Shown in pieces: positions 2,403-56,641 of a DNA stretch of 64,000 bases. The notes under the pieces were generated by a model that was given only the letters and a program-made list of their open reading frames with translations, was not told the DNA's origin and did no database searches. Position 1 is the stretch's first letter. Every line of letters begins with the position of its first letter. Both the position numbers and the translations under genes were made by a program. Source of the DNA: a virus; IMG/VR virus record IMGVR_UViG_3300045999_013174. One strand, given 5' to 3'.

Positions 2403-4319
2403 ATGGAGAATCATTCCTTTTATGTGAACGATAGCAAGCCAAAGGAGCTTTTTTCCTGGGAAGGCATGCCTGACTTTGACAAAATGAGCCGCATTGAGGC
2501 GGCGCGTTGGTATGAGAAGCAGCGTAAGCGATGGGAGGAGGGCTACGGCGGCCTAAATGGTCTTCATTATTTCTATGCGACAATCGGGACCCTGAAAAAC
2601 GCAAGGAATAAGTACATAAAGCCTCGGGTTCGAGACGGGGATATTTTGGTTTTTGAAGCCTATATAGAGGCTCAAAAAAGACAGCGAGACCTCTTCATTG
2701 CAAAGCGAAGGGGTTTCGCTCTTTCTTCAATATTCGGAGCCGGTGTGCCGTTTTATCACGCCTTGCTTGAGGGCGGCTCTGTTAATCTGATGACCTCTGC
2801 CGACCAAAAGCGTCTAAATGCTTTGTATCGTGACAAAATCATGCCGTTTTACAACGGTCTTCCCGACATTATAAAGCCTGGTGTTATCTCCGGCCAGCAG
2901 AAGAACCTTCTTCATCTTGGTAGTAGAGAGGGCAAGACTGTATCGGGGCTCGACTCCCTAATCATGGGTGTTCCGACTGCCGGTTCTTATGATGAAGCGA
3001 CAGCCTTTGAGGCTTATCGTGCCACTTCGATTTTCATAGATGAGGTTTTCCTTCATGACTACGCAAAGCAGGTTCTTGCTTCGGCCCAAGCTTCAATATC
3101 GGATGACCTTGTAAAGATTAATCCTATTGTGATGGGTGGTAGTTGTGGCGTTGCCTCAAGCAAGGCCGCAGTTGAAATGCAAGCTCTTTGGGAGGACTCT
3201 GTTGCCGAGAAGGTTCTTACCGTTTTCATCCCGGGAACAATGTGTGTGGAGTCTGCTCCTGAAATAGGCGCAGACGGGGAGCCAACGGGTCGGATTCTTA
3301 ATTTTTGCGAGAACGGTATTTCTGACCAAAAGAGGGCAGAGGAGTGGATTGACAGAACTCGAGAGATTTACGACAAGGCCACCAATAAGACCAAGCTGTA
3401 TCAGTTCATTAAGGCATACCCAAAAACCATTGGCGAGGTTTTCGAGTTTAACACCGTTGGTGCATTCTCGCAGGATGTTATGGATGCGTTGACTGATATC
3501 TCTACGCGCATAACCAAGCAGAATGACTTTGTTGTGCCGGTTCGTATATCAGAGGCTTATGAGGGTGGCGCTGTTAGGGCTACACCTATCCCTTCTAAGA
3601 ACTATACTGGGGACAAGAGCGGGTTCTTTATCCTGAAAAATCCTGAGCCGAATGTGATTTATGGGCTCGGGAATGACCCTATTCCGTTTACGGACAACTC
3701 TCAAGATGGCAAGCGCTCTGACCTTGTCTCTATTGTCGCAAGAATGGACACGGCCGAGCCGGTCGCTTACTATCGAGAGAGAACCCACGACCCGGATATT
3801 GCTGTTGAGAACACCTTGCTTTTGTCCCGGCTTTATAATGACGCCAAGATTATGATTGAAATGAACCAAGGGGGCGTTTTGTCTCACAAAATTCGAGACC
3901 TTGGATTTAAGCACTTATTGGCTCCTCAGCCGATTTGTTTTGGCGGGGGTGTTTTCAAGAAAAGAGAAGGGTATGGATGGTGGAAAGGAACAAATGCCCA
4001 GGAGGCATACGCCGAGCTGGTCCGGATAATCAAAACCCAGGGTCAGTACCTAAACATGAAAGACCTTGTTGACGAGCTTAAAAAGTTCCTCGTGGTTAAT
4101 ACAGACTTGGCGGATGCTTATGTCTCCTTCTTGGTTTACAGGATGGACTATCTTCATCGAAAAAAGGCCGGCGAGCTTCGGCCGAAAATCGAAAAGGAGA
4201 TACCTCAGGCCGTTTGGAGGAACGGCCGGCTTGTAACGGAGTGGGTTAAGGTGTATGTTGACGCAGAGGGCGTTGAACCTGTTAATAAAAACCCGAGTAG
4301 CATGTATTATGGCCGTTAG
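2403..4319 (+). CDS. terL: terminase large subunit
   Basis: 638 aa with Walker A-like LGSREGKT and Walker B-like IFIDEVF, then a nuclease-sized C-terminal half. Sits upstream of portal. Confidence 0.8.
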   Translation: MENHSFYVNDSKPKELFSWEGMPDFDKMSRIEAARWYEKQRKRWEEGYGGLNGLHYFYATIGTLKNARNKYIKPRVRDGDILVFEAYIEAQKRQRDLFIAKRRGFALSSIFGAGVPFYHALLEGGSVNLMTSADQKRLNALYRDKIMPFYNGLPDIIKPGVISGQQKNLLHLGSREGKTVSGLDSLIMGVPTAGSYDEATAFEAYRATSIFIDEVFLHDYAKQVLASAQASISDDLVKINPIVMGGSCGVASSKAAVEMQALWEDSVAEKVLTVFIPGTMCVESAPEIGADGEPTGRILNFCENGISDQKRAEEWIDRTREIYDKATNKTKLYQFIKAYPKTIGEVFEFNTVGAFSQDVMDALTDISTRITKQNDFVVPVRISEAYEGGAVRATPIPSKNYTGDKSGFFILKNPEPNVIYGLGNDPIPFTDNSQDGKRSDLVSIVARMDTAEPVAYYRERTHDPDIAVENTLLLSRLYNDAKIMIEMNQGGVLSHKIRDLGFKHLLAPQPICFGGGVFKKREGYGWWKGTNAQEAYAELVRIIKTQGQYLNMKDLVDELKKFLVVNTDLADAYVSFLVYRMDYLHRKKAGELRPKIEKEIPQAVWRNGRLVTEWVKVYVDAEGVEPVNKNPSSMYYGR

Positions 4320-4701
4320 TCTTCAGAAAAGCAAGCTCAGAAAGGTGGAGTACATCGCCCTTGACAACTCAACAAAAGTTGGTTGGTTTCATTGCTTTGT
4401 CGTAAGGAAGGGGGATTACGTGGGATACTCCAAAGGCGCGATGGTTGAGGCTGCTAATGGGAAGCTTATAATTGTAAAGGTTGGTGAATTTAGGTTTGTA
4501 GACCCGCCTGTTCGTAAGCATAGAAGGCTTATTTTTGTGAACGATAAAGGAGCCACTGAGGTTGCTTTTTTTCATGTGTGGATAAGGCGTAAGGGTGTCT
4601 ATGTCGGTATAGACACCTTTGCCCTTATTGAGAAAAAGAGCGGCGAGCTTCTTGTCAGGCCTTACAACGAGATAACATTTATTGACACAGAATCATCATG
4701 A
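4309..4701 (+). CDS. hypothetical protein
   Basis: ORF track gives 4255..4701 (TTG start). An in-frame ATG at 4309 (ATGGCCGTTAG) overlaps the terL stop and is the more plausible start. Confidence 0.4.
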   Translation: MAVSLQKSKLRKVEYIALDNSTKVGWFHCFVVRKGDYVGYSKGAMVEAANGKLIIVKVGEFRFVDPPVRKHRRLIFVNDKGATEVAFFHVWIRRKGVYVGIDTFALIEKKSGELLVRPYNEITFIDTESS

Positions 4702-31000: not shown

Positions 31001-34000
31001 TTATGACCTCAATGAGAAGAACCGGCTTAACCCTGGCGGAACCCGGATGGTTTACCGCTTGCCGGGTAACAGGGTTATAAAAGTGATTGGCGATAACACC
31101 CAAGCTGGTCGGGTTCAGAATCTCGCAGAAGGAATTGAGGATTTTACGCCTATGGTTTACGAGTCCGGGCTGGACTATGTGATTGTAGAGGAGCTTCCTC
31201 CGCCTTCAAGCGCAAATTTCAAAAACTTCGCCTCTTGGCTTAGCAAGACAAAGGCTGAGGACTGGATAAAGAAGCCTGAAGCGTTCCGAGAAAAGCTTGC
31301 TGAGTTTGGTCTTGAGAAAATACTTGACAAAGGATATTCTCTTGCTTATGGAGATATTACTGCGATTGAGAATTGGGGAGAGCGCGACGGCAAGATTATG
31401 CTTGTCGATGCGGGAAGCCTTGTTGCCGGATACCAAGTGTCGGGCAGTCTTGATAAGGCAGAACAAGTTCTCGCAGAGAAGACTGTTGCGACCAAGGAGG
31501 TGTTGGCTACAGACGCTCCGAAGGCTACGGTTTTGTTCCAAGCTGCGGCCCCCTTGCCGCCTTCTCCATGGCAGAATCTTATTGCTACGAACCGCCAGGC
31601 TCACAAGGCGGTTGTCAAGATGACCAAGAAAATCATCAAGGCTAACGGGAAGGTCGCAAATGATGTTGCTAATATCCTTATCGACACAATAGCTCAGGGG
31701 TTACCTGATATGCCGCCAATGCCAAAAGACATAGCGTTTGATTATGTAATCAAGGGTATGTCTGAACTTGGCATTCAGCCTGATTATACAGGTATGGCGG
31801 TGCAGCCTGATGAGATTGAATTGAGTGTTGGAGACCTCAATGTAAAGACGGTTTTCACCCGGGTTCAGCAATCAAAGAAAGTTTCCGGCCGGCTCCGCCA
31901 GGCGCTTACCCGTGCGGGAAGGCTTTATGACGTAGAGAACCAAGGCCTCGCTTCTGAGCTTGCTAATGCTATTATTGAAGAGTATGGCCCAAGGGCTGCT
32001 ATGGCGATGGTTAAGGCCGGAATTATAAAAGGGGCGACAAGCTCATTTATTTACGGTGCCGTCATTGATAAAATGTCTTCTGAAGGCTCTAAATATTCAG
32101 AGATAGCAGAGGTTATAAATGACTTTGCGCTACATCAGCGTGAGCTTGGTCGCGGGATAGCCGCCCTTAACGAGGTTTATGTAAGAAGCCCACAGGGTCT
32201 GTATTACATGGCCCTCCACGCGATGAATCAAACAAATGCTGTAGCAACTGCCTCGGCTACCGGGGCGGCCACAGCTCTTTCCGGTCAGCTTGCTGCAGCC
32301 CAGCAATCCGCAGCGGCTACCGTGGCTACTAATATTGCTCGTGGCGCAACATCCGGAACCAGCAGGATATCAACCGACATTCCGGATTTGATAATCATGG
32401 GTCAGCAGGAGAAGATGAAAGCCTTGAAAAAAGAGGCGAATGATATCCTCCGTCAGCTCAAAGGGCTCGGCTCTCAACTTCCATTCGCGGCTCCTACAGG
32501 ACGAATCCAAGCCCTTCAATCGCTTGGCAAGCTCGACCTTGTTGTTTCCCTCGGTGCAAACTTTATCAAGAGGGGCAATGTTCAGTTTAGTATTTGGGCT
32601 GCGCGGTTTAAGAAGTCACTATCATCAGCAGGTATAACCTTTGACAAAGATGACTTGCAATACGTTTGGGAAACCGCCGAAGTTAAGAAGACTCTTCAAG
32701 ATACTCTTGATTCGGGCCTTGCTCCTCTCGACGGCCCAATCAGGGATTACCTTCGCTCTACCCAAACGAAGCTTGCTGCTATTGTGCGGAAGCGGGCTGC
32801 CGACCGGACGATAAGCCTTCAGAATTTGGCTGACGATATTGCAGCCTCTCTTGCTGTAGACCCTGTGGTTGCCAGCCGTCTCTCTGCCGCTATTCTTGCC
32901 GACATTGACAAGATGTCTAAGGCTATGCAGCAGAAAATTGTTGAGAAGTTTCATAAGAATCTTACTAAGAAATTCGGCGGCAACAAAGAGGCTGCCGAGG
33001 CTTCCTTAGCAGACTTGGTGAATCTTGTCAACATGAACCAGGCCAACCCGCATGACATCGCAGAGGCGATAAAATTTGCTTTTGGCGGTGTTTCTATGTC
33101 GGACTCTCAGTCGGACCAGTTTATCAAGCTTGCCGAGGATGTGTTCAAAACCCGGGAGGGCTCTCGAAATCGTCAGATTGCTCAGAAGCGCCTTGTTGAG
33201 TTTACCAACAGTTTATACAAAACCAAGTTTGGAGACTTGTTTTGGATTTTCTTTTACCCAAATCAGCTTGCCGGCATCAGTACGCAAGTGGTAAACACCA
33301 TTGGAAACTTCTACAACACTCTCGCTCAGATGCTCATTTATGCTCACACAGACATACGCAATGCTGTCCGTATGGGTCTTGGGACATCTTTGATTAATTC
33401 ATTGTTGGAGCTTTCTCAGCAGGTTGGCACAGGGCTGCAGAGCGCGAAGCTTGTAATGGAAACGGGTATCGCTGGCTCCGGGAATAAGTATGCAGACCTT
33501 AAAGCCGCCACTAAGAATTCAAAAACCATCGAGGATGACCTTGGTTATAAGATTCAGAGTTTTAGCGGGCTTTCTACAGCGGAGGTGTTCCCTGTTGCGG
33601 TACGAAACCTGTTTAACGGATTCATGCTGCTTAATCAAGCGTTCTTGAAGTATTTCCCGGTGAGGTTTATGACCGCTGTGGATAATGCCTTCTATCAGGC
33701 TACATACGAGAAGTCTATCCGCAGACAGTATATCAACGAGCTTTATGAGCAAGGGTTTCGTGGAAAAGCGTTACGCGATGCTGTATACGAAGCAATGCAC
33801 GGAACTGATACGGATGTTCAGACCGCTGCTCAGGAAGCGTATGCTGAAATGGTCGACGCGCAAATCCCATTCTTCGACAATCAGAAGCTTGCGGATTATA
33901 TCCTGGCGAAACAGCTTAGCGGTGAGATTAAGGCTGCTATAAATAGTGCTATTGGCGCGGGTTCTGGAACTTCTCCTTTGCCTCCTCTCGCCGAGCTTAT

Positions 34001-35819
34001 GAATATGCTCGGGTCAGAGACCACTGGGCCTCTAATGTCTGCTGCGTTAATACAGGCGGACCCGAGTATTTTGGCTGAGCGAAGCTTGTGGTCTACGGCC
34101 GCGAAGGTTGCCGTAAGGGAGATTATTCACTCCCGCTCGATTCCTGAACACATTGCCGACAGGGCTTCGCGCCAGTCGATGTATGTGACATTGAAAAATA
34201 CGCCCGAAGGGTTTCTTGGGGTTATTGCCGCCGTTACGTCGATGGCCGTAAATACATTCGCTCCGATTCGATTCCTGGTTCCGTATGTTAATGTCCCGTT
34301 CAATATCGCCAATATGTTCCTCGATTGGTTCCCGCTAACCTCTGTGCCCCGCGCAGCCGGCTTGTCGCTATCGAGGATGTTTGGACCAACGTTCCTGCAG
34401 CGATTTGGTGTTAAGCCATCATCGTATTCTGAGGGAACGGCGGTTCAGTATGGACTGGAATACGACCCTGTTATGCATCAGGAGCAAAAGGTCAGGGCTA
34501 TGTATAGTACCCTTATTGGTATCTCGACATTTGCATACTACGTCTCGAAAGCACTTGGGGATGATGAGGAGGAGGAAGGCCCGGCAATAACCGGAGGTCT
34601 CTTCAATGTGAGATATGACCGCGCCGGGAAGACCCAAAAGCCTTACACCATAAAGATATTTGGCGAGGAGTTCTCTTATGAGAACACGCCTTTATACCTC
34701 GTCCTTGCCTCGGTAGGCAACACGTGCGACATAATCCGTCAGCTTAAGGCTGAGGGTGCTGAGCAAGGTGGTGTGAGTTTCGATGCTTTAATAAGCAACT
34801 CGTTGACCTCAATGACTTACACAGCGTTGTCCTTGTTTGATGCCTTGCCTATCAGTGGCCTCGAGGGGATAATGGGGATTCTCTCTTCAAGGGAGAAGGG
34901 GGCTGCGTCCATGGGACTTAAAGAAAAGGCTCTTTTGAGAACAGCCCAGGGACTTATAAAATCCCTGCTTACTCCGGTTCCTATTGTGGGCAACAACTTT
35001 GTGAAGCAGCTTGAGCAATTTAATGACCCACGCAAGTACGTTAATGATGTGTACGACCCTGAGGTGTTTCTTGCGAGAGCAACTGGTCACGTATTGATAA
35101 ACACCCTGTCAGACGGGTCTCTTGTTATGAGAGATTATCTTGGACGCGAAGTTGTTCAATATCCTGGCGCAAGGAATATCAAGACTCTTGAGATTGCTGA
35201 GAAGTCCGACATTGACCGCTACATCTACTCTAAGCATCTGAATTTTATTCCGGTATCAAAGGATTCCGAGGTTGCGGTTATTGCTAAGGGGCCAAATGGT
35301 CGGGAATCCGGGACCCTTGTGAAGCTGACTGATGATGTTCAGCTTTTTAACGAAGCTTACACCGCCGGTGGTACTATTATGCGAAAGTATCTTGGTGAGT
35401 TTCTCCCTCTGCTGAAGTCGCTTAACGACACTCAGCTTGAGAGAGAGATTATCAACCAGGCGAATGAATGGCAGCGAAAGTATGTTATTGAAAAAATAGA
35501 AGACGCCGAGTTTTCCAAAACGAAAGAAGGCTTTAAGGCCTCTTCGATTCCTGACGATATTTCTGTTGTGTTCTCCGGCTGGGGGCGCAACCGCGAATAT
35601 GCCGATGGGGTTACCCGGATTTCCGAAAATGGAAGTATCCTAAATATCCTTCGGGATATTAATAAATCACCGGTTTCCGCAAGGGAATCTAAGCTCAGGG
35701 ATTTGCGCGCTGTTCTCAATGTTAAGACCGAAAGCGAGAGGGTTAGGGATAAGATTCGGGAAGAGGCAGAACGTCGAAACTTAAATGTCAATAATTTGGA
35801 CATCGTAGTTCCTGAATAA
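22026..35819 (+). CDS. giant multidomain virion protein (4,597 aa), putative ejected polyvalent protein
   Basis: Single stop-free 13.8-kb frame. Coiled-coil N-terminal quarter. Pro/Ala linkers, including (PA)n at 26395-26487. A small domain repeated three times. HExxH...E zincin motif at 30060. Gly-loop/VDAG kinase-like segment 30920-31450. Multiple hydrophobic helices 33240-34900. Confidence 0.8.
   Translation: [4597 protein letters not shown]
26395..26487 (+). repeat. coding (Pro-Ala)n low-complexity tract inside the giant gene
   Basis: Translates to [31 protein letters not shown], a linker. A second P/A-rich linker lies at about 30590-30683. Confidence 0.7.
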
Positions 35820-43474: not shown

Positions 43475-43957
43475 ATGAAAACAGATGCGATTACTTTGTC
43501 AAGGATTGAGCTTATGCACCCGAAGGTTCGAGAAGAGGTTCGGCGCATGTATGAATCAATTTGCCAGGCTTTAACCGGTAGAGCTCTTTGCCGATTCACG
43601 CACACCTTAAGGACATTCGAGGAGCAGAATGCATTATTTGCACAAGGGAGAACAGCTCCCGGGAAGAGGGTCACTAACGCCCGGGGTGGAGCGTCGTTTC
43701 ACAACTATGGGCTCGCCTTTGATATTTGCCTTATTGTTGACGGGAAAACCGCCTCGTGGGACATGAAGAGCGATTTTGACCAAGATAGAAAGTCTGATTG
43801 GATGGAGGTTGTTGCTATCGCAAAGTCATTTGGGTGGGAATGGGGCGGAGATTGGAAGAAATTCCCGGATGCTCCGCATTTCCAAAAGACCTTTGGTTAT
43901 ACAACCAAAGAACTCATGGGGCTACGCAAGGCGAATGCGACATATCCTGATATTTAG
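43475..43957 (+). CDS. endolysin, peptidase M15 family (L-alanyl-D-glutamate peptidase type)
   Basis: SFHNYGLAFDI (H-x6-D) and DAPHFQ (D-x-H) zinc-ligand motifs typical of VanY/M15C phage endolysins. Confidence 0.8.
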   Translation: MKTDAITLSRIELMHPKVREEVRRMYESICQALTGRALCRFTHTLRTFEEQNALFAQGRTAPGKRVTNARGGASFHNYGLAFDICLIVDGKTASWDMKSDFDQDRKSDWMEVVAIAKSFGWEWGGDWKKFPDAPHFQKTFGYTTKELMGLRKANATYPDI

Positions 43958-48644: not shown

Positions 48645-48848
48645 TTAAGACACCTTTGCAATCTCATACACTTCATCAATAAAATGATAATGTGTTGCAA
48701 ATTCTACCATTGCATCATTTAAGCTACTTGCTTCTATATATACCATCAAATCTTTACCCATACTTCGGTATTGGAATAAAAAACGGCACATAACAGCCGT
48801 TTGCTGCAATGGCGGGTTCTGTGGTGTATTTATGCTTTCGTGTTCCAT
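48645..48848 (-). CDS. small protein, MEHE-family paralog 2
   Basis: ORF track gives 48645..49037. Internal ATG at 48848 (ATGGAACACGAAAG, MEHES..) matches paralog 1 at nucleotide and protein level. A perfect palindromic terminator lies between 48848 and 48910. Confidence 0.45.
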   Translation of the reverse strand: MEHESINTPQNPPLQQTAVMCRFLFQYRSMGKDLMVYIEASSLNDAMVEFATHYHFIDEVYEIAKVS

Positions 48849-48874: not shown

Positions 48875-48900
48875 AAAAGGCTCCCCTAAGGGAGCCTTTT
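48875..48900. terminator. perfect palindromic bidirectional terminator-like hairpin
   Basis: AAAAGGCTCCC-CTAA-GGGAGCCTTTT, flanked by A- and T-runs, between two minus-strand paralog genes. Confidence 0.6.
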
Positions 48901-49799: not shown

Positions 49800-50206
49800 C
49801 AGGGGTTTTCCACAGACGGAGTGGAGGTTATAAGACCTGGGTTGTAAAGAGCATTGTGAAGCATCCCTTTTATCCTTAAAGGGTCTGCTAAAGCAGAAAA
49901 TATATGCTCAACCTTTACCGAGCCTTTTCTTGTATCTGTAACGGCAAGGATAACATACTCGCTTGACCCTAAAATTGAGTTAAGCGCATCTATCTTATCA
50001 AGCGGAAATGGAAACATAAGCTCAACCTCGTTTGAGAGAAACCCAATGTCGCCCGAGTGGCCATAAGGCCTTACGAAAACAAAGTCTCCATCGGAAATCG
50101 TCACAACTCCGAGGTCATTTTTCTTTAGCTTTCGCCCACTGGAGAGCTTGTGCCCCTTGTAGCTTCCGGTAATCTTTACAATGTCGAATGGCTTGTATGC
50201 GCTCAT
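49799..50206 (-). CDS. hypothetical protein
   Basis: 135-aa ORF; start overlaps the stop of the upstream gene. Confidence 0.4.
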   Translation of the reverse strand: MSAYKPFDIVKITGSYKGHKLSSGRKLKKNDLGVVTISDGDFVFVRPYGHSGDIGFLSNEVELMFPFPLDKIDALNSILGSSEYVILAVTDTRKGSVKVEHIFSALADPLRIKGMLHNALYNPGLITSTPSVENP

Positions 50207-51003
50207 TAGTTCAAAATTATTGGGGTTCGACCATCGGTGATAATCACTTTGTTGTTGGTTGTTTTTATGGCCTCAATCCACTGCTGCTGAAGAATTTCTT
50301 TGGTTAATCCCGAAGACTCCACCCTGTTTCTCTCAGCGTCAATACGAGCCTTCTCGAGCAGCATCTTCGATGTGGCAAGCTGGTTCTCCACGGTTGCAGC
50401 TTCCTGGATGGCGTTGTTCTTTTTCTCAATCGCCTGAAGCATAGAAGTCGAGGGTTTAATACCCGAGGTAAGGTCGCCCATGTCAAAGTGTTTTACATTG
50501 AATTCGGTCTTAAGCCTTAGTTCAACGGCTGACTCCAGTGACCTGATGTTATACAGAAGACTGTCGTTTGTGAATCGACTCGCCTCTTCTCGGTAGGCAT
50601 TCAGCACAAGCCGGTTAAGGATGCCCTTTTCGATATTGTCCATAAAGGCTTCGCCTGTTCCAAACTGCTTGTATGAGAAAACGATATCGACACCCTTGCC
50701 GCGCATCGCGCTGTATGTGTATGTGGGGTCTACCGTGAACCGGCCACCGTCTTTGGTAACAATCTCCATCGCCTCAGGGTCTGCAGATTGCTCAAACATC
50801 GGAACTTGATAAAGTTCAGACCCGGGGCCAAGTATACCTTGACTTCCGGTTACCAAGGAGAAGTCGCCCTTGCCATTTCTTCCGTATTTCTTCATCAGGA
50901 CACCCTCATAATTCGGGGCCACTGAGTTGCAGGATGTGCATGATTGTAAAATCATTAGGCCATACACGGCAATTGCGGTCAATAAGAATTTAGTTGCTTT
51001 CAT
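50206..51003 (-). CDS. SPFH/Band-7 (prohibitin/stomatin-like) domain lipoprotein
   Basis: Signal peptide plus Cys (MKATKFLLTAIAVYGLMILQSC) typical of lipoproteins. Central domain and the C-terminal ..QQQWIEAIKTTNNKVIITDGRTPIIL resemble SPFH family proteins (HflC/prohibitin-type ending). Confidence 0.55.
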   Translation of the reverse strand: MKATKFLLTAIAVYGLMILQSCTSCNSVAPNYEGVLMKKYGRNGKGDFSLVTGSQGILGPGSELYQVPMFEQSADPEAMEIVTKDGGRFTVDPTYTYSAMRGKGVDIVFSYKQFGTGEAFMDNIEKGILNRLVLNAYREEASRFTNDSLLYNIRSLESAVELRLKTEFNVKHFDMGDLTSGIKPSTSMLQAIEKKNNAIQEAATVENQLATSKMLLEKARIDAERNRVESSGLTKEILQQQWIEAIKTTNNKVIITDGRTPIILN

Positions 51004-51214
51004 TTTGGTTTTTTGTTTTTGTTTGGGTTTTGGATTTTGATGTTTCGCTGAAAAAAATCTGCTTGTAAGGAAGGGCTATCAGGGAGACGGTCAAGACTAC
51101 AAGTATCGCCCATGCCAACAATGGGTACGGAGACTGAAATACCTCTATAATACCCATGCAGATTACAAAAAGTGCTGCAAGCATGAGCACTGCGGTTATT
51201 GCTTTCTTTTTCAT
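50990..51214 (-). CDS. small integral membrane protein (possible NfeD-like partner of the SPFH protein)
   Basis: 74 aa with two hydrophobic helices. Overlaps the SPFH gene start by 14 nt (operon). Confidence 0.4.
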   Translation of the reverse strand: MKKKAITAVLMLAALFVICMGIIEVFQSPYPLLAWAILVVLTVSLIALPYKQIFFSETSKSKTQTKTKNQNESN

Positions 51215-51215
51215 T

Positions 51216-51518
51216 TTAGTCGTGGTTCATTAAGAAAATGTTCTTGTTCTTCTTGCGCTCCTCGAGCACCTTTTGAAGCTTCTTTTTGTTGGGGTCTAAG
51301 GATTTGTACCCAATAACCGAAAGAGCATCCTCTATACGGGTGAGAATTTTTACTCCAAAATTCTTCCTCCCGCTCATGAATTTGCTCATGTCAGCCTTGT
51401 GTACATTAGCCCTTCGGCGCAACTCAGAAGTCGAAAGAAGGGTATTTTGGGAGAGGTATAACCTCAGCCTTGCGTTCCATTCATCAAGGCGCTTTCGTTG
51501 CGTGTTGTTCATTCTCAT
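51216..51518 (-). CDS. helix-turn-helix (XRE-like) transcriptional regulator
   Basis: LSTSELRRRANVHKADMSKFMSGRKNFGVKILTRIEDAL fits HTH_XRE architecture. Confidence 0.55.
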   Translation of the reverse strand: MRMNNTQRKRLDEWNARLRLYLSQNTLLSTSELRRRANVHKADMSKFMSGRKNFGVKILTRIEDALSVIGYKSLDPNKKKLQKVLEERKKNKNIFLMNHD

Positions 51519-52255
51519 GGCATTGCAGAATTGGCTATAAACCCTGCTCCAAAAAGGGCTGCAGCGCCCAGTATTTTAACACCTAATGGGACTTTCTTTT
51601 TCCCTCTTACGGTGTATTCCCGGAAGCTTATCGCTTCGTAATATGGGCTCTCTATAGAAACCCTTACAACGGGGCTTTGCCTCTTAAAAGACAGCGGTTT
51701 TCTTGGTGTAACATCATCAATCTGCACTTGCCCTGTGCTCAAATTTAGGGTGTCAATTAGTATTCCTGGGCCAATTGGCGACTTCACAATTGAGCCTCTA
51801 AGGTCAAACCACAGGCTGTCCTTATAAGCGAATCGTGCCGGCGTAGGAATACATGCTGTATCGGTTGAAGCAAGGCCTCCTGTGTCTATGGGAATAAACA
51901 CGCTGTCTACCGAAGCTTTAAGGCTCATCATGACAGAACGTTCAAGGTTTTTGTATCGCCTCGCCTCAGCTCCTAACCTTTGCTTAAAGTCTTCCGAAGC
52001 GGATTTCTCAGACACAATCAGCCTCTCAAGCTCATACACCTTGCGCCCCGAAGCCTCGACTTTAACAAAGGCGTCGGCGGCCGACACCTCCGCTGATATA
52101 GCCCTTTGCTCAGCCTCTTCTAATGAGGCTTCAAGAGACCGATTTGCGATGCCACCGAGCCACTCGGAATAAATAAACCCTAAAAGGACGCCAATGGCAA
52201 TTCCGGCGGCAATTAAGGCAGCTCGCTCCATGGACTTAAAAGTCTGACTGGTCAT
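51515..52255 (-). CDS. membrane-anchored coiled-coil protein
   Basis: 246 aa. N-terminal TM helix (AALIAAGIAIGVLLGFIY) followed by a charged helical region. Confidence 0.4.
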   Translation of the reverse strand: MTSQTFKSMERAALIAAGIAIGVLLGFIYSEWLGGIANRSLEASLEEAEQRAISAEVSAADAFVKVEASGRKVYELERLIVSEKSASEDFKQRLGAEARRYKNLERSVMMSLKASVDSVFIPIDTGGLASTDTACIPTPARFAYKDSLWFDLRGSIVKSPIGPGILIDTLNLSTGQVQIDDVTPRKPLSFKRQSPVVRVSIESPYYEAISFREYTVRGKKKVPLGVKILGAAALFGAGFIANSAMP

Positions 52256-53255: not shown

Positions 53256-54005
53256 TTAAAATGGAAGGTCATCGTCCTCTCCGCCCATAAGAGGCGGCGG
53301 TTCTGTTGCTTGGGCTGCGCTCGCCTGGGCGCGAGCCCTCTCAATGGCTCCTACTTTGAAGGACTCATTTTCGCTTGGCGGCTGCTGCGCAGGAGGCTGA
53401 GAGGGCTGCTCTTCATTGGGAGCCTCTGAGGCGGGAGCCGGCGAAGGCGAGCCTGTAGAGCCGAATTTCGCAGTAAGGTTGTCGATTACCGTATGGAAAA
53501 AATCCACAACGGCAGAGTCGTCAACAACCTTCTTCTTGCCTACCATCCCGATTTCGGGGCGGGGGATTTCGTTTACTGGGATAGCCCAGTCAACCCTGTT
53601 GCCCTCAGACTCCACATAAGCTGAGGCATAAAACTTACCATCATTCTTTGATTGGCGCGAATAAACGCGAATACGTACAGGTTTGCTTTTATCAAGCGAA
53701 AGCAAGCTGTTCAAAATAGAATACGTCAAGGAGTTGTAGGTCGCCTCCACTTGGAATTTTTTGGTTGGCTCTTGGTCATCTACGAATTTAACCCTTACGG
53801 AGTAAATTGGATTCCCTTGCCATTCCCCCTCCTTGCGGGAAACACCGATAACATACCCGGAAACTTGGTCGAAGCGACCATCTGTTCCCCATTTACCATC
53901 TGCACCCTTGACAGCTAATGTGAAAAAAGGCGAGTTCGATTCATCAGTCTTAGCATTAAGCTTAAGATAATCAATCTGTTCAGAATTTGAATTTGAATAA
54001 CCCAT
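53256..54005 (-). CDS. ssb: single-stranded DNA-binding protein
   Basis: 249 aa. Pro/Gln/Ala-rich flexible tail ending with the canonical SSB acidic tip DDDLPF. Confidence 0.7.
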   Translation of the reverse strand: MGYSNSNSEQIDYLKLNAKTDESNSPFFTLAVKGADGKWGTDGRFDQVSGYVIGVSRKEGEWQGNPIYSVRVKFVDDQEPTKKFQVEATYNSLTYSILNSLLSLDKSKPVRIRVYSRQSKNDGKFYASAYVESEGNRVDWAIPVNEIPRPEIGMVGKKKVVDDSAVVDFFHTVIDNLTAKFGSTGSPSPAPASEAPNEEQPSQPPAQQPPSENESFKVGAIERARAQASAAQATEPPPLMGGEDDDLPF

Positions 54006-54061: not shown

Positions 54062-54544
54062 TTATAAACAATCCGAACTTGGCTCGGGTATTATCCAGTC
54101 CATATTAAGTTCATAATACTGACGGATAGCCTCGAGCCTTTCTCCGAATTCTTTGGTGTTGTAGAGCGTCGTTGAGGTTGGGATATTAATCGTCTCTCCG
54201 GTCGCTCCATTGAAGATTGTCACACAGAAAAAATTCGCCTTATTGAACTCATGCATCTGCTGCTTTGATAGTTGTAGCCCGTGCCTTTCCTTGTGCGCTT
54301 TAATCTGCTCTGCGACAACAACGCCATAGTAATAGGCGTTTTGAGCAAGGGAGCGCTTATCGCTATCAAAAACGCTAAGTTCCATCACCAATGTAGAGCC
54401 TTTGAATTGCGATACGAATTCATTAAAAGCCTTTCTGTTGATGATTTTAGCAACCCCCGTGTCGCTATCGACACGGAGGAAGAATCTGTTCTGAAAGCTT
54501 GACAGCTCCTTAATCGACCTCATTGGCATCAGGCTTAAGCTCAA
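54062..54544 (-). CDS. NinB/Orf-like recombination mediator
   Basis: 160 aa. SDKRSLAQNAYYYGVV resembles the lambda Orf (NinB) core ERNRSLDQNRKLWACLGDV, from memory of the family. Confidence 0.45.
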   Translation of the reverse strand: MSLSLMPMRSIKELSSFQNRFFLRVDSDTGVAKIINRKAFNEFVSQFKGSTLVMELSVFDSDKRSLAQNAYYYGVVVAEQIKAHKERHGLQLSKQQMHEFNKANFFCVTIFNGATGETINIPTSTTLYNTKEFGERLEAIRQYYELNMDWIIPEPSSDCL

Positions 54545-55310
54545 GCTGGCGGGCTGGAAGTTTGTTCAAGATATTAATCTTTCGCTCAGCGAAAACCTCG
54601 CTACGAACTTCTGAATAGAGGCTGTTTGAGAGAATGTTCTTAACAGTGCTACCGTACCACGTTTTGTTCCTCTTGGAAGGAATACCCCTACGGGAAAGTT
54701 CGGTGGCGATATACCCCTGCCCGCGCCCATTAAGGGACATAGAGATTATCTCTTTGATGATTTTAATCTCCCCTTCGTGGCGAACAAGGTTACCATCGGC
54801 GTCTGAGACGAATCCATAAGGGTCTTTGCTGTACTTTTTGCGTGACCGCTTAAGCTGCGCCATAGCATCGGAGGTTCGCTCTGAAATACGGGCTGATTCA
54901 AATACGGCAAAGGAGAGCATGAGCGTAAAAAGTAGCCGGCCCGTAGAGGATTGCGTATTGACAATGTTGCCGGCGACATCCGTTGTGTAAAGGCTAATGC
55001 CTTTTGAAGACCATTCATCGACAGTTGTCAAGCCGTCAACATCATTACGAAAAACGCGGTCAACCCGAAGTCCTATAACCCCTACAACATCGGGGTTTTC
55101 GCTAAGATATTCAAGCATCTTGCCGCCCTCGGGCCTCTCTTTAAGAGGTTTGCGCCCGGAAACATCGCTGTCGGCAAAGATTTTTACAGGGAAAACATTA
55201 AGGAACTGGCAAAAGCTGTAAATCTTTTGGTGCTGAACCTCTGTGGATAGGTCTTGGTCGTCAGTGCTTACCCGTATGTAAGCAACAACTTTTTTGATTG
55301 GCTCAATCAT
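54510..55310 (-). CDS. serine recombinase (resolvase/invertase family; possible integrase)
   Basis: N-terminal VVAYIRVSTDDQ catalytic-serine motif, then VIGLRVDRVFRN. 266 aa, shorter than typical large serine integrases. Confidence 0.8.
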   Translation of the reverse strand: MIEPIKKVVAYIRVSTDDQDLSTEVQHQKIYSFCQFLNVFPVKIFADSDVSGRKPLKERPEGGKMLEYLSENPDVVGVIGLRVDRVFRNDVDGLTTVDEWSSKGISLYTTDVAGNIVNTQSSTGRLLFTLMLSFAVFESARISERTSDAMAQLKRSRKKYSKDPYGFVSDADGNLVRHEGEIKIIKEIISMSLNGRGQGYIATELSRRGIPSKRNKTWYGSTVKNILSNSLYSEVRSEVFAERKINILNKLPARQLELKPDANEVD

Positions 55311-56020: not shown

Positions 56021-56641
56021 TTATTTAGGGTTAAGAAGCTTGTTTGTCGTAGCGGAACAATAAAGCCCGCCGAAGAATTGATTTATAGCCTTATTAAAAA
56101 CATCCGCACCCTCTATACCCCACCCGGGGGAATTGTCGCGCTTGAGGGACTGGTAGGCTTTGTCAAAAAGGGTTATACAGGAGCGTAGCTTCATACAATC
56201 GACAAAGCCGAACATATCCAATAGCTGCTTGGAAATGTCTTTGTTTGTAAAGGTTCTGAGCATATAGGACAATAAGTCCACAAGCGCCTCCCTCAATTCA
56301 TCATCGAGAAGGTACTCTTTTGCTTCCTTCATGCCTTTAATGCCGTAGAAGCGGGATATTCTGCTTTTGCCGAGACCTCTTATCTGCGGGTACATAAACC
56401 ACATATAGCACATGCTCTTTTTCCCTGCTGCAATATCAGCTTTTGCAAATAAATGCATACCCGCGGAGGCAAGCTTAAAGCGGTCAAGCCCTACCCCTGC
56501 AACGGTGTTGAATACGTGCCTTGCTGCTTCGTAATAATCGGAGCCGCGAAGTTCCTGGGCGCCAATATACGCCTTGATGAAGACCTCAAGGTCGAGGTCG
56601 TTTTCCCTCATTAGTTTGAGGGCAAGTTCTGATTTTTCCAT
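56021..56641 (-). CDS. hypothetical protein with conserved WFMYPQIRGLGKS motif
   Basis: 206-aa ORF. The motif is reminiscent of a DUF-type family (recalled, unverified). Confidence 0.4.
   Translation of the reverse strand: MEKSELALKLMRENDLDLEVFIKAYIGAQELRGSDYYEAARHVFNTVAGVGLDRFKLASAGMHLFAKADIAAGKKSMCYMWFMYPQIRGLGKSRISRFYGIKGMKEAKEYLLDDELREALVDLLSYMLRTFTNKDISKQLLDMFGFVDCMKLRSCITLFDKAYQSLKRDNSPGWGIEGADVFNKAINQFFGGLYCSATTNKLLNPK

Follow-up and report, generated by a model that had tools for sequence, protein, structure and literature searches.

A predicted SPFH lipoprotein and a small membrane hairpin form a putative mobile two-gene cassette in Bacteroidota and their phages

In the virus record IMGVR_UViG_3300045999_013174 of IMG/VR (hereafter the window, a single 64,000-nt stretch of DNA whose first letter is position 1), two overlapping genes on the minus strand encode a divergent SPFH/Band-7 protein of 265 aa with a predicted lipoprotein signal and a 74-aa protein predicted to form a two-helix transmembrane (TM) hairpin, and the conservation, translational coupling and natural fusion of such pairs across phages and bacterial genomes indicate that the pairing is functional. 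The phage SPFH lipoprotein is an ordinary member of a widespread, functionally unexplained family, and its gene is not unusual; new in this analysis are the hairpin partner, which is not NfeD, the fusions, and the mobility of the cassette. We consider it likely, as a molecular picture, that the two products make up a two-component periplasmic SPFH scaffold. The cassette is laid out as follows:

50990..51214, minus strand: 74-aa two-TM hairpin partner with an ATG start (from the open reading frame (ORF) list and hydropathy, family alignments and a family hidden Markov model (HMM)).
50206..51003, minus strand: SPFH/Band-7 predicted lipoprotein, 265 aa, with an ATG start and its stop codon at 50206-50208 (Pfam, PHROG, AlphaFold2 (AF2), Foldseek).
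50990..51003, minus strand: 14-nt overlap of the 3' end of the partner gene with the start of the SPFH gene, the putative translational-coupling junction (ORF coordinates, sequence).
50929..51003, minus strand: predicted signal peptide and lipobox, aa 1-25 of the SPFH protein (rule-based test, family statistics, codons read from the sequence).
50380..50922, minus strand: SPFH (Band_7) domain, aa 28-208 (Pfam envelope and AF2 secondary structure).
50209..50448, minus strand: predicted C-terminal oligomerisation region (AF2 secondary structure, alignment, full-length Foldseek match).

An earlier, sequence-only reading of this DNA had described the larger product as a lipoprotein with a stomatin/prohibitin-like domain and an HflC-like C-terminus, and the domain assignment was borne out. 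The Pfam Band_7 model (PF01145) matched aa 28-208 with E = 4.4e-9 (37.1 bits against a cut-off of 23.6), phrog_200, annotated 'lipoprotein', matched with E = 3.9e-30, and 867 homologues were detected, with PF01145 found in all but one of the 119 that were listed. The AF2 monomer model, built with 50 homologues in the alignment, reached a mean predicted local distance difference test (pLDDT) score of 86 and ran from an N-terminal signal-peptide helix through the SPFH alpha/beta domain (beta-sheet at aa 32-99, helices at aa 104-170) to a 45-residue helix (aa 186-230), a second helix (aa 235-248) and short strands in the C-terminal tail. Foldseek aligned this model over nearly its full length with solved SPFH structures, the best PDB match being prohibitin (8rrh, E = 3e-11), followed by stomatin (9oh9), HflK/C (7wi3/7vhq), erlin, flotillin and QmcA (8z5g), within an E-value range of 3e-11 to 1e-7, and vault, with a probability of 1.00 and 230-300 aligned columns at a sequence identity of 12-17%. 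The tail (N251-K-V-I-I-T-D-G-x-T-P-I-I-L) is nearly invariant in the family alignment, with N251, I254, T256, G258 and P261 fully so, and this NKVIITDGxTP motif is consistent with an oligomer interface of a predicted ring or cage. As for the HflC-like C-terminus, what stood was the generic SPFH cage architecture, and what did not was any specificity for HflC: prohibitin and stomatin score equally well, the cassette holds a single SPFH gene with no second Band_7 paralogue in the window or at any locus examined, and the SPFH protein matched no NCBIfam family at E <= 1, HflK and HflC included, in a release whose content of HflK/HflC models was not verified. Specific HflC/HflK membership was thus rejected; the protein belongs to a divergent SPFH clade, and 'HflC', as some database entries name it, seems to be a label used generically for the superfamily. 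The NCBIfam scan of the cassette gave only two sub-threshold hits at E <= 1, both unrelated, and the PADLOC scan of the SPFH protein matched no defence family, returning only JetD (E = 0.011, 12.8 bits).

The lipoprotein half of the description also withstood a rule-based check. The N-terminus reads MKATKFLLTAIAVYGLMILQS-C22-TS-C25-NSVAPNYEG, with the n-region MKATK (K2 and K5 being the charged residues), the h-region FLLTAIAVYGLMIL and the lipobox LQS-C22 within AVYGLMILQS-C22, and it satisfies the PROSITE PS51257-type lipobox rule at C22, as do 89 of the 104 homologues with complete N-termini. C25 (codon 50929-50931; that of C22 is 50938-50940) aligns with a cysteine present in all 104 of these homologues, located exactly five residues ahead of the invariant PNYEG in 101 of them, and the SPFH product is thus probably exported and lipidated at C22 or C25. 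About a quarter of the family, the window protein included, carries a second cysteine three residues before the conserved lipobox cysteine, and CxxC-type variants of this site include CTSC, CGGC, ACTC and ACRC (P0003, P0004, P0008, P0019, P0027, P0035 and others). In Bacteroidota lipoproteins, an acidic stretch just past the cysteine marks the protein for surface export. No such stretch follows the cysteine here (NSVAP in the window, NRPEP in relatives), which suggests that the SPFH protein faces the periplasm. The Joint Genome Institute (JGI) gene call for an identical protein (P0001, 229 aa) has M37 as its first residue and omits window positions 50895..51003, that is, the first 36 codons with the signal peptide, the lipobox, N31, E33 and G34; since the invariant residues N31, E33, G34 and L36 precede M37, this call is too short.

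The 74-aa ORF had been read as a two-helix membrane protein overlapping the SPFH gene by 14 nt, and the ORF list, hydropathy and coordinates (50990-51003) confirmed this. Its product has a lysine-rich N-terminus, TM1 at about aa 5-25, the turn F26-Q-S-P-Y-P31 (predicted to be periplasmic; F-R-S-x-x-P in the family), TM2 at about aa 32-48, the motif P49-Y50-x-x-x-F54 (family form (F/L)-P-Y-x-x-F-F) and a tail rich in K, T, S and N. Pfam, PHROGs, NCBIfam and PADLOC gave no significant match. An HMM trained on ten small ORFs adjoining SPFH genes recognised the window protein with E = 2e-22, and the protein carries F26, S28, P31, P49, Y50 and F54; in the family alignments F26 and P31 are invariant, and R27, S28, P49, Y50 and F54 nearly so. 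An exhaustive HMMER search of 1.84 billion proteins returned 99 partner clusters at 50% identity, all of 44-113 aa, a count that is a minimum, since gene callers often miss ORFs of this kind; most members have 55-62 aa, and the family range is given as 55-75 aa. By these alignments and searches, the partner belongs to a conserved family of its own, without a Pfam model, and is not a chance ORF. No description of it as a conserved SPFH companion was found in the literature.

The association of the two genes was assessed in 73 SPFH-containing stretches comprising deposited phages, IMG/VR contigs, metagenome contigs and 50 bacterial genome loci. In 68 of these, the SPFH gene had a directly adjacent same-strand neighbour that matched the partner HMM, and the five misses include one stretch (L009) with a recognisable, degenerate partner copy and two that belong to distant phages, one crAss-like and the other PV4-TP1. 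Reverse look-ups from three partner proteins found a Band_7 gene directly downstream each time. The partner lies upstream of the SPFH gene in most loci, immediately downstream of it in a Flavobacteriaceae/Weeksellaceae group and in L012, and is separated from it by one inserted gene in L006; the survival of the pair through order inversion and gene insertion argues that the linkage is functional, not merely inherited. Among 49 non-redundant pairs, the genes overlap by 4 nt in 13, by 1 nt in eight and by 14 nt in four (the window included, with the identical overlap recurring in L001, L011 and L015), further pairs overlap by 11 or 17 nt, and most of the pairs overlap or are separated by gaps of at most 8 nt, spacings typical of translationally coupled genes.

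In several Chitinophagaceae the two genes are fused in frame, in the order partner, signal peptide with lipobox, SPFH body (the metagenomic proteins P0024, P0027, P0114 and P0070, and Filimonas zeae, L036), and such Rosetta-stone fusions argue that the hairpin and the SPFH protein act together. AF2 modelled the fusion P0027, from an alignment restricted to fusion and SPFH rows, at a pLDDT of 87 with helices at residues 2-26, 31-47 and 63-79 ahead of the SPFH body. The fusions also bear on topology: a fused signal peptide has to insert with its N-terminus inside and its C-terminus outside, which places the C-terminus of the partner in the cytoplasm, in agreement with the positive-inside distribution of lysines, and therefore leaves only the F-R/Q-S-x-x-P turn to reach the periplasmic surface. 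Collectively, conservation, translational coupling and natural fusion mark the SPFH-hairpin pairing, on sequence grounds, as a functional one.

Every locus with a named taxon among the 50 found in the genome scan belongs to Bacteroidota (Runella, Flavobacterium, Paraflavitalea, Filimonas, Taibaiella, Dyadobacter, Mucilaginibacter, Hymenobacter, Algoriphagus, Capnocytophaga, Riemerella, Bergeyella and Cloacibacterium). In 'Candidatus Pseudobacter hemicellulosilyticus', in a Runella sp. and on a 242-kb contig, the cassette stands alone between non-phage genes of the opposite strand, with ECF sigma/FecR/SusCD, MacB/OEP or MMPL/RND genes at the flanks of such stand-alone copies; in Elizabethkingia anophelis it lies in the early region of a Mu-like prophage, and on a 443-kb contig it lies beside CHAT/TPR and patatin genes. 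Phage and chromosomal SPFH copies were intermixed in a rough neighbour-joining tree. Seven Runella species retain the cassette at one chromosomal site beside an MMPL transporter gene and with a conserved upstream flank, a sign of stable inheritance in that genus; elsewhere, loci of different genera have only the cassette in common. When 13 neighbours of the cassette in the window were searched by tblastn against 16 SPFH loci, Cellulophaga phage phi4:1 and Leptolyngbya phage Lbo-JY46 among them, nothing matched except the cassette, which indicates that it travels as a unit, and a synteny with phi4:1 that annotations had suggested (exonuclease, 250-aa protein, small TM ORFs, SPFH gene) was withdrawn after this search. 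By these comparisons the cassette is a mobile accessory unit exchanged among Bacteroidota chromosomes, prophages and virulent-type phages. Phage Lbo-JY46 (L001, PP438436.1) has a recorded cyanobacterial host, yet it carries a Bacteroidota-type cassette with 57% identity, in which an unannotated partner ORF (3697..3879) overlaps the SPFH gene (3866..4648) by 14 nt.

The phage setting named in the sequence-only reading was upheld by the genes of the window, which encode an endolysin, a tail-fibre protein, an exonuclease and a product of 4,597 aa; a rightward structural/late module (the giant ORF, the tail-fibre protein and the endolysin) is accompanied by a leftward module with the exonuclease, a protein resembling single-stranded DNA-binding proteins (SSB), a serine recombinase, a DUF1810 protein and the cassette. 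No close DNA relatives of the window were found among deposited phages. Other features around the cassette are:

22026..35819, plus strand: single giant ORF of 4,597 aa, structural/late module.
43475..43957, plus strand: endolysin, about 6 kb from the cassette.
51216..51518, minus strand: 100-aa protein with weak matches to HTH_26 (E = 0.039) and TrbA (E = 0.0015) and, in PADLOC, to PDC-M64B/C (E about 2e-4, weak).
51515..52255, minus strand: 246-aa protein with an N-terminal TM segment, a coiled coil and a C-terminal hydrophobic segment, and a faint Rz-like spanin match (E = 0.065).
53256..54005, minus strand: 249-aa protein ending in GGEDDDLPF, with only a weak PHROG hit of unknown function.
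54510..55310, minus strand: 266-aa serine recombinase (Resolvase N-terminal domain, E = 1.5e-27, and a partial Recombinase domain; phrog_95 integrase / phrog_125 invertase).
56021..56641, minus strand: DUF1810 protein (E = 3.1e-29).

An acidic DDDLPF-like tip is typical of single-stranded DNA-binding proteins, and from this tip we take the 249-aa protein to be, in all probability, the phage SSB. The serine recombinase may be what is left of an integrase, or else a DNA invertase, which bears on whether the phage is temperate. The 246-aa protein lies two genes upstream of the cassette and, by tblastn, is not conserved beside SPFH genes elsewhere. With the endolysin about 6 kb away on the other strand, the cassette lies outside the lysis cassette; its place in the early/replication-side array leads us to propose that it is expressed with the early genes.

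Co-transcription of the two genes had also been claimed and is plausible, there being no intergenic space and, in a consensus scan that overall performed no better than on shuffled sequence, no terminator between them. The promoter and terminator counts were near shuffle expectation, with Bacteroidota promoters outside the scope of the tool. The whole leftward array is, in addition, densely packed: the stop of the 100-aa HTH-like ORF is followed after one base by the start of the 74-aa ORF, and the stop of the 265-aa ORF overlaps the start of the next ORF (135 aa), so that the link between the SPFH and hairpin genes comes from comparative genomics and not from the window alone. An 11-bp perfect hairpin (AAAAGGCTCCCCTAAGGGAGCCTTTT) between runs of A and T, readable on both strands, lies at 48875..48900 and a terminator-like site on the minus strand nearby at 48781..48802; these sites possibly mark the end of the leftward transcription unit that holds the cassette.

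SPFH genes were listed in T4-like phages as early as 2006 (PMC1524935), we found 72 deposited phage records with an SPFH annotation, and the structure collection BFVD holds SPFH proteins across phages and giant viruses. Their names vary, from 'SPFH domain / Band 7 family' (phi4:1 gp165), 'prohibitin family protein' (IAS virus, gp018) and 'hflC' (PBS1) to 'high frequency of lysogenization C protein' (LoVEphage) and 'prohibitin-family protein' (Bacillus phages), and the SPFH protein of cr85_1 (L073, NC_055883.1, 1483..2283) is annotated as 'serine protease', probably an inherited misnomer. A 2026 paper calls the reason for SPFH genes in phage genomes unclear (PMC13239085), and a Crassvirales preprint only speculates on their function. 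The phage proteins of PHROG 200 are direct homologues of the window protein (56% identity to phi4:1 gp165, about 30% to those of crAss-like, Lak and LoVE phages); they have the lipobox and a small membrane ORF directly upstream in common with it and show no essential difference from it. Such upstream ORFs with two TM segments occur as IAS gp017, as cr85_1 gp015 (11-nt overlap), in Lak-B3 and in LoVEphage/PV4-TP1. The gene in the partner position is 'hypothetical' in phi4:1 (gp164), IAS (gp017) and cr85_1 (gp015), and is unannotated in Lbo-JY46 and PV4-TP1; in the latter, a Phocaeicola phage (L004, PQ571302.1), it is a 57-aa membrane ORF at 2838..3011 that overlaps the SPFH start by 17 nt.

Among characterised systems, the HflK/HflC pair of E. 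coli and the prohibitins PHB1/PHB2 offer the closest architectural comparison, with the same SPFH domain, long wall helix and C-terminal cap region aligned over the full length by Foldseek, and with an N-terminal membrane anchor as in the window protein. HflK/C and prohibitin bodies sit on the non-cytoplasmic side of an energised membrane, which is also where the body of the window protein is predicted to lie. The cassette of the window differs from both in having one SPFH gene in place of a heteromeric paralogue pair, in the low identity already given, and in its anchor, which is a lipobox where HflK/C and prohibitins have a TM helix, the TM element of the window system being located in the separate hairpin.

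These features suggest a mechanism in which the two genes would act as one translationally coupled membrane cassette. The SPFH product would be exported, lipidated at its N-terminal cysteine and held facing the periplasm, while the 74-aa product would sit in the inner membrane as a helical hairpin with both termini inside; the periplasmic F-(R/Q)-S-x-x-P turn of the hairpin would meet the conserved lipidated linker of the SPFH protein (C-N-x-x-x-P-N-Y-E-G), and the hairpin would thereby supply in trans the TM element that HflK/C and prohibitins have in cis. Like its structural relatives, the SPFH protein may oligomerise through its wall helix and C-terminal strands, and the dome or microdomain so formed, on the periplasmic side of the inner membrane, could enclose membrane clients. 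The likeliest use of the cassette, expressed early in infection, would be to bring an inner-membrane client under phage control, whether a membrane protease of the FtsH type or a client of quality control, with the pay-off that the host membrane and the membrane proteins of the phage stay functional until lysis. The outward-facing SPFH families, HflK/C and the prohibitins, both cage AAA+ membrane proteases, and for this reason an FtsH-type client is the best-precedented one. Taken jointly, the scaffold and a role in protease control or membrane homeostasis form the explanation towards which we lean on balance; the specific role, considered separately from the scaffold, is one we hold only tentatively. 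The sequence-only reading had itself put forward membrane protection, superinfection exclusion and FtsH modulation, and each of these is a candidate function on the present data.

Several points weigh against this explanation. We infer the lipidation, inner-membrane retention, cage formation, direct contact of the two proteins, client and role, a monomer model and sequence conservation being the grounds for the cage, the lipidation and the contact. The best match of the sequence profile against the PDB was prohibitin at E = 0.22, and so weak a similarity to solved SPFH proteins makes any functional transfer from them loose. No FtsH gene was linked to the cassette in the loci whose neighbours were listed, and nothing in the data identifies the client. 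The SPFH lipoprotein could be sorted to the outer membrane instead, away from its inner-membrane partner. The turn and the linker change together between clades (CNRPEP with FRS[DE]xP, CNRVQP or CNSVAP with F[QK][ST]xxP), and we did not use this co-variation as evidence, as it is inseparable from shared ancestry; for the two-TM ORFs of crAss-like, Lak and LoVE phages, hhalign detected no homology to the partner family (probability 1.9%), and we treat them as positional and architectural analogues only. Finally, the patchy, mobile distribution of the cassette and its CHAT/TPR/patatin neighbourhood fit a role in conflict at least as well.

Such a role is the core of the main rival, superinfection exclusion or envelope defence, in which the periplasmic dome and its hairpin would cover or sequester an inner-membrane entry portal or receptor and so block DNA delivery by secondary phages, to the benefit of a virulent phage in its latent period, of a lysogen, or of a bacterium that has domesticated the cassette. 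This reading explains the mobile distribution at least as naturally as protease control does: the cassette occurs in virulent-type phages, in a Mu-like prophage and as stand-alone chromosomal insertions, phage copies are interspersed with host copies in the tree, the occurrence is patchy with only the cassette shared between genera, one chromosomal copy adjoins CHAT/TPR and patatin genes, and the cassette occupies the early-side array here and the early region in the prophage. The exclusion proteins Imm and Sp of T4 and Llp of T5 are early products that are small multi-TM inner-membrane proteins and/or periplasm-facing anchored proteins or lipoproteins, and the architecture of the cassette recalls theirs. 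They are not SPFH proteins, however, and show no sequence or profile similarity to the cassette in PHROGs; neither cassette protein had a PADLOC match to a defence family, and the retrieved literature contains no link between SPFH proteins and defence. The stable retention of the cassette at one chromosomal site in seven Runella species looks more like a resident cell function, and in the Mu-like prophage the cassette belongs to the lytic early operon and does not lie beside the repressor. On this evidence we judge exclusion or defence to be rather unlikely, while still the strongest of the alternatives. A broader form, which draws on both the scaffold and the conflict role, would make the cassette a self-contained 'split SPFH' module exchanged between Bacteroidota and their phages (with crAss-like and Lak phages included through their analogous pairs), in which a periplasmic cage sequesters a portal or a protease and either excludes other phages or blunts abortive infection aimed at the membrane; as an envelope conflict device of this kind the cassette is a speculative proposition, which we rate a little lower again.

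The echo of bacterial SPFH-NfeD operons that the sequence-only reading heard was half right. Operons such as QmcA-YbbJ, FloA-NfeD and PH1511-PH1510 share with the window the two-gene coupling of a membrane partner to an SPFH gene, the QmcA-YbbJ cage 8z5g is among the Foldseek matches (E = 4e-8), and it has been suggested that NfeD partners improve SPFH function by favouring oligomerisation (PMC13086221). The small protein might accordingly be imagined as a minimal NfeD that assists the oligomerisation of the SPFH protein or controls an associated protease. The partner itself is, however, not NfeD: the search for the NfeD model PF01957 was empty at E <= 1, its profile found no NfeD/YbbJ chain in the PDB at E <= 10, and about 20 low-complexity residues past TM2 are too few for an oligonucleotide/oligosaccharide-binding (OB) fold, leaving a separate family of short proteins with neither an OB-fold nor a protease domain. 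In addition, the QmcA(YbbK)-YbbJ cage protrudes into the cytoplasm (PMC13086221), whereas the SPFH body of the window carries an export signal. Membership of the partner in the NfeD family was thus rejected, and a phage version of the SPFH-NfeD operon is improbable.

We give still less credence to a role in lysis timing, with the 74-aa protein as a class-II-type holin or antiholin whose triggering the SPFH lipoprotein would regulate. The size and two-TM design of the small protein, a sub-threshold match to Phage_holin_3_6 (E = 0.048; 14.1 bits against a cut-off of 28.4) and the faint spanin match of the upstream 246-aa protein speak for it; against it, all of these matches fall below threshold, no lysis family of PHROGs was matched, the endolysin is distant, on the opposite strand and in the late module, chromosomal cassettes occur without lysis genes nearby, and fusion to an SPFH signal peptide is hard to square with a free hole-forming protein. 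The 74-aa protein is accordingly unlikely to be a holin. Very improbable indeed is a place for the SPFH lipoprotein in or on virions with a function in adsorption or DNA entry, as speculated in PMC13239085 and hinted at by the GenBank note for phi4:1 gp165, which opens 'part of structural ...', and by SPFH peptides that mass spectrometry detected in preparations of Vi01-like and of Erwinia jumbo phages (PMC10892097, PMC6034870), since the peptide counts were very low (three retrievals; one peptide) and at least one preparation was crude, which makes membrane contamination likely, the gene lies in the early-side array and not in the structural module, and stand-alone chromosomal copies and an integral-membrane partner are unlike a component of a tailed virion.

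SPFH lipoproteins are among the commoner accessory genes of large phages, gut crAss-like phages and Lak megaphages included, and an obligate, coupled and sometimes fused hairpin partner offers an experimental handle on the complex and on the client that it may cage. The finding also corrects the default assumption that a small gene beside an SPFH gene is NfeD. Its practical yield is modest, in that several deposited phage genomes lack or misname the genes of the cassette. As the cassette moves among chromosomes, prophages and virulent phages, it is a candidate for a function in phage-host conflict at the level of the membrane, for which few mechanisms are known in Bacteroidota.

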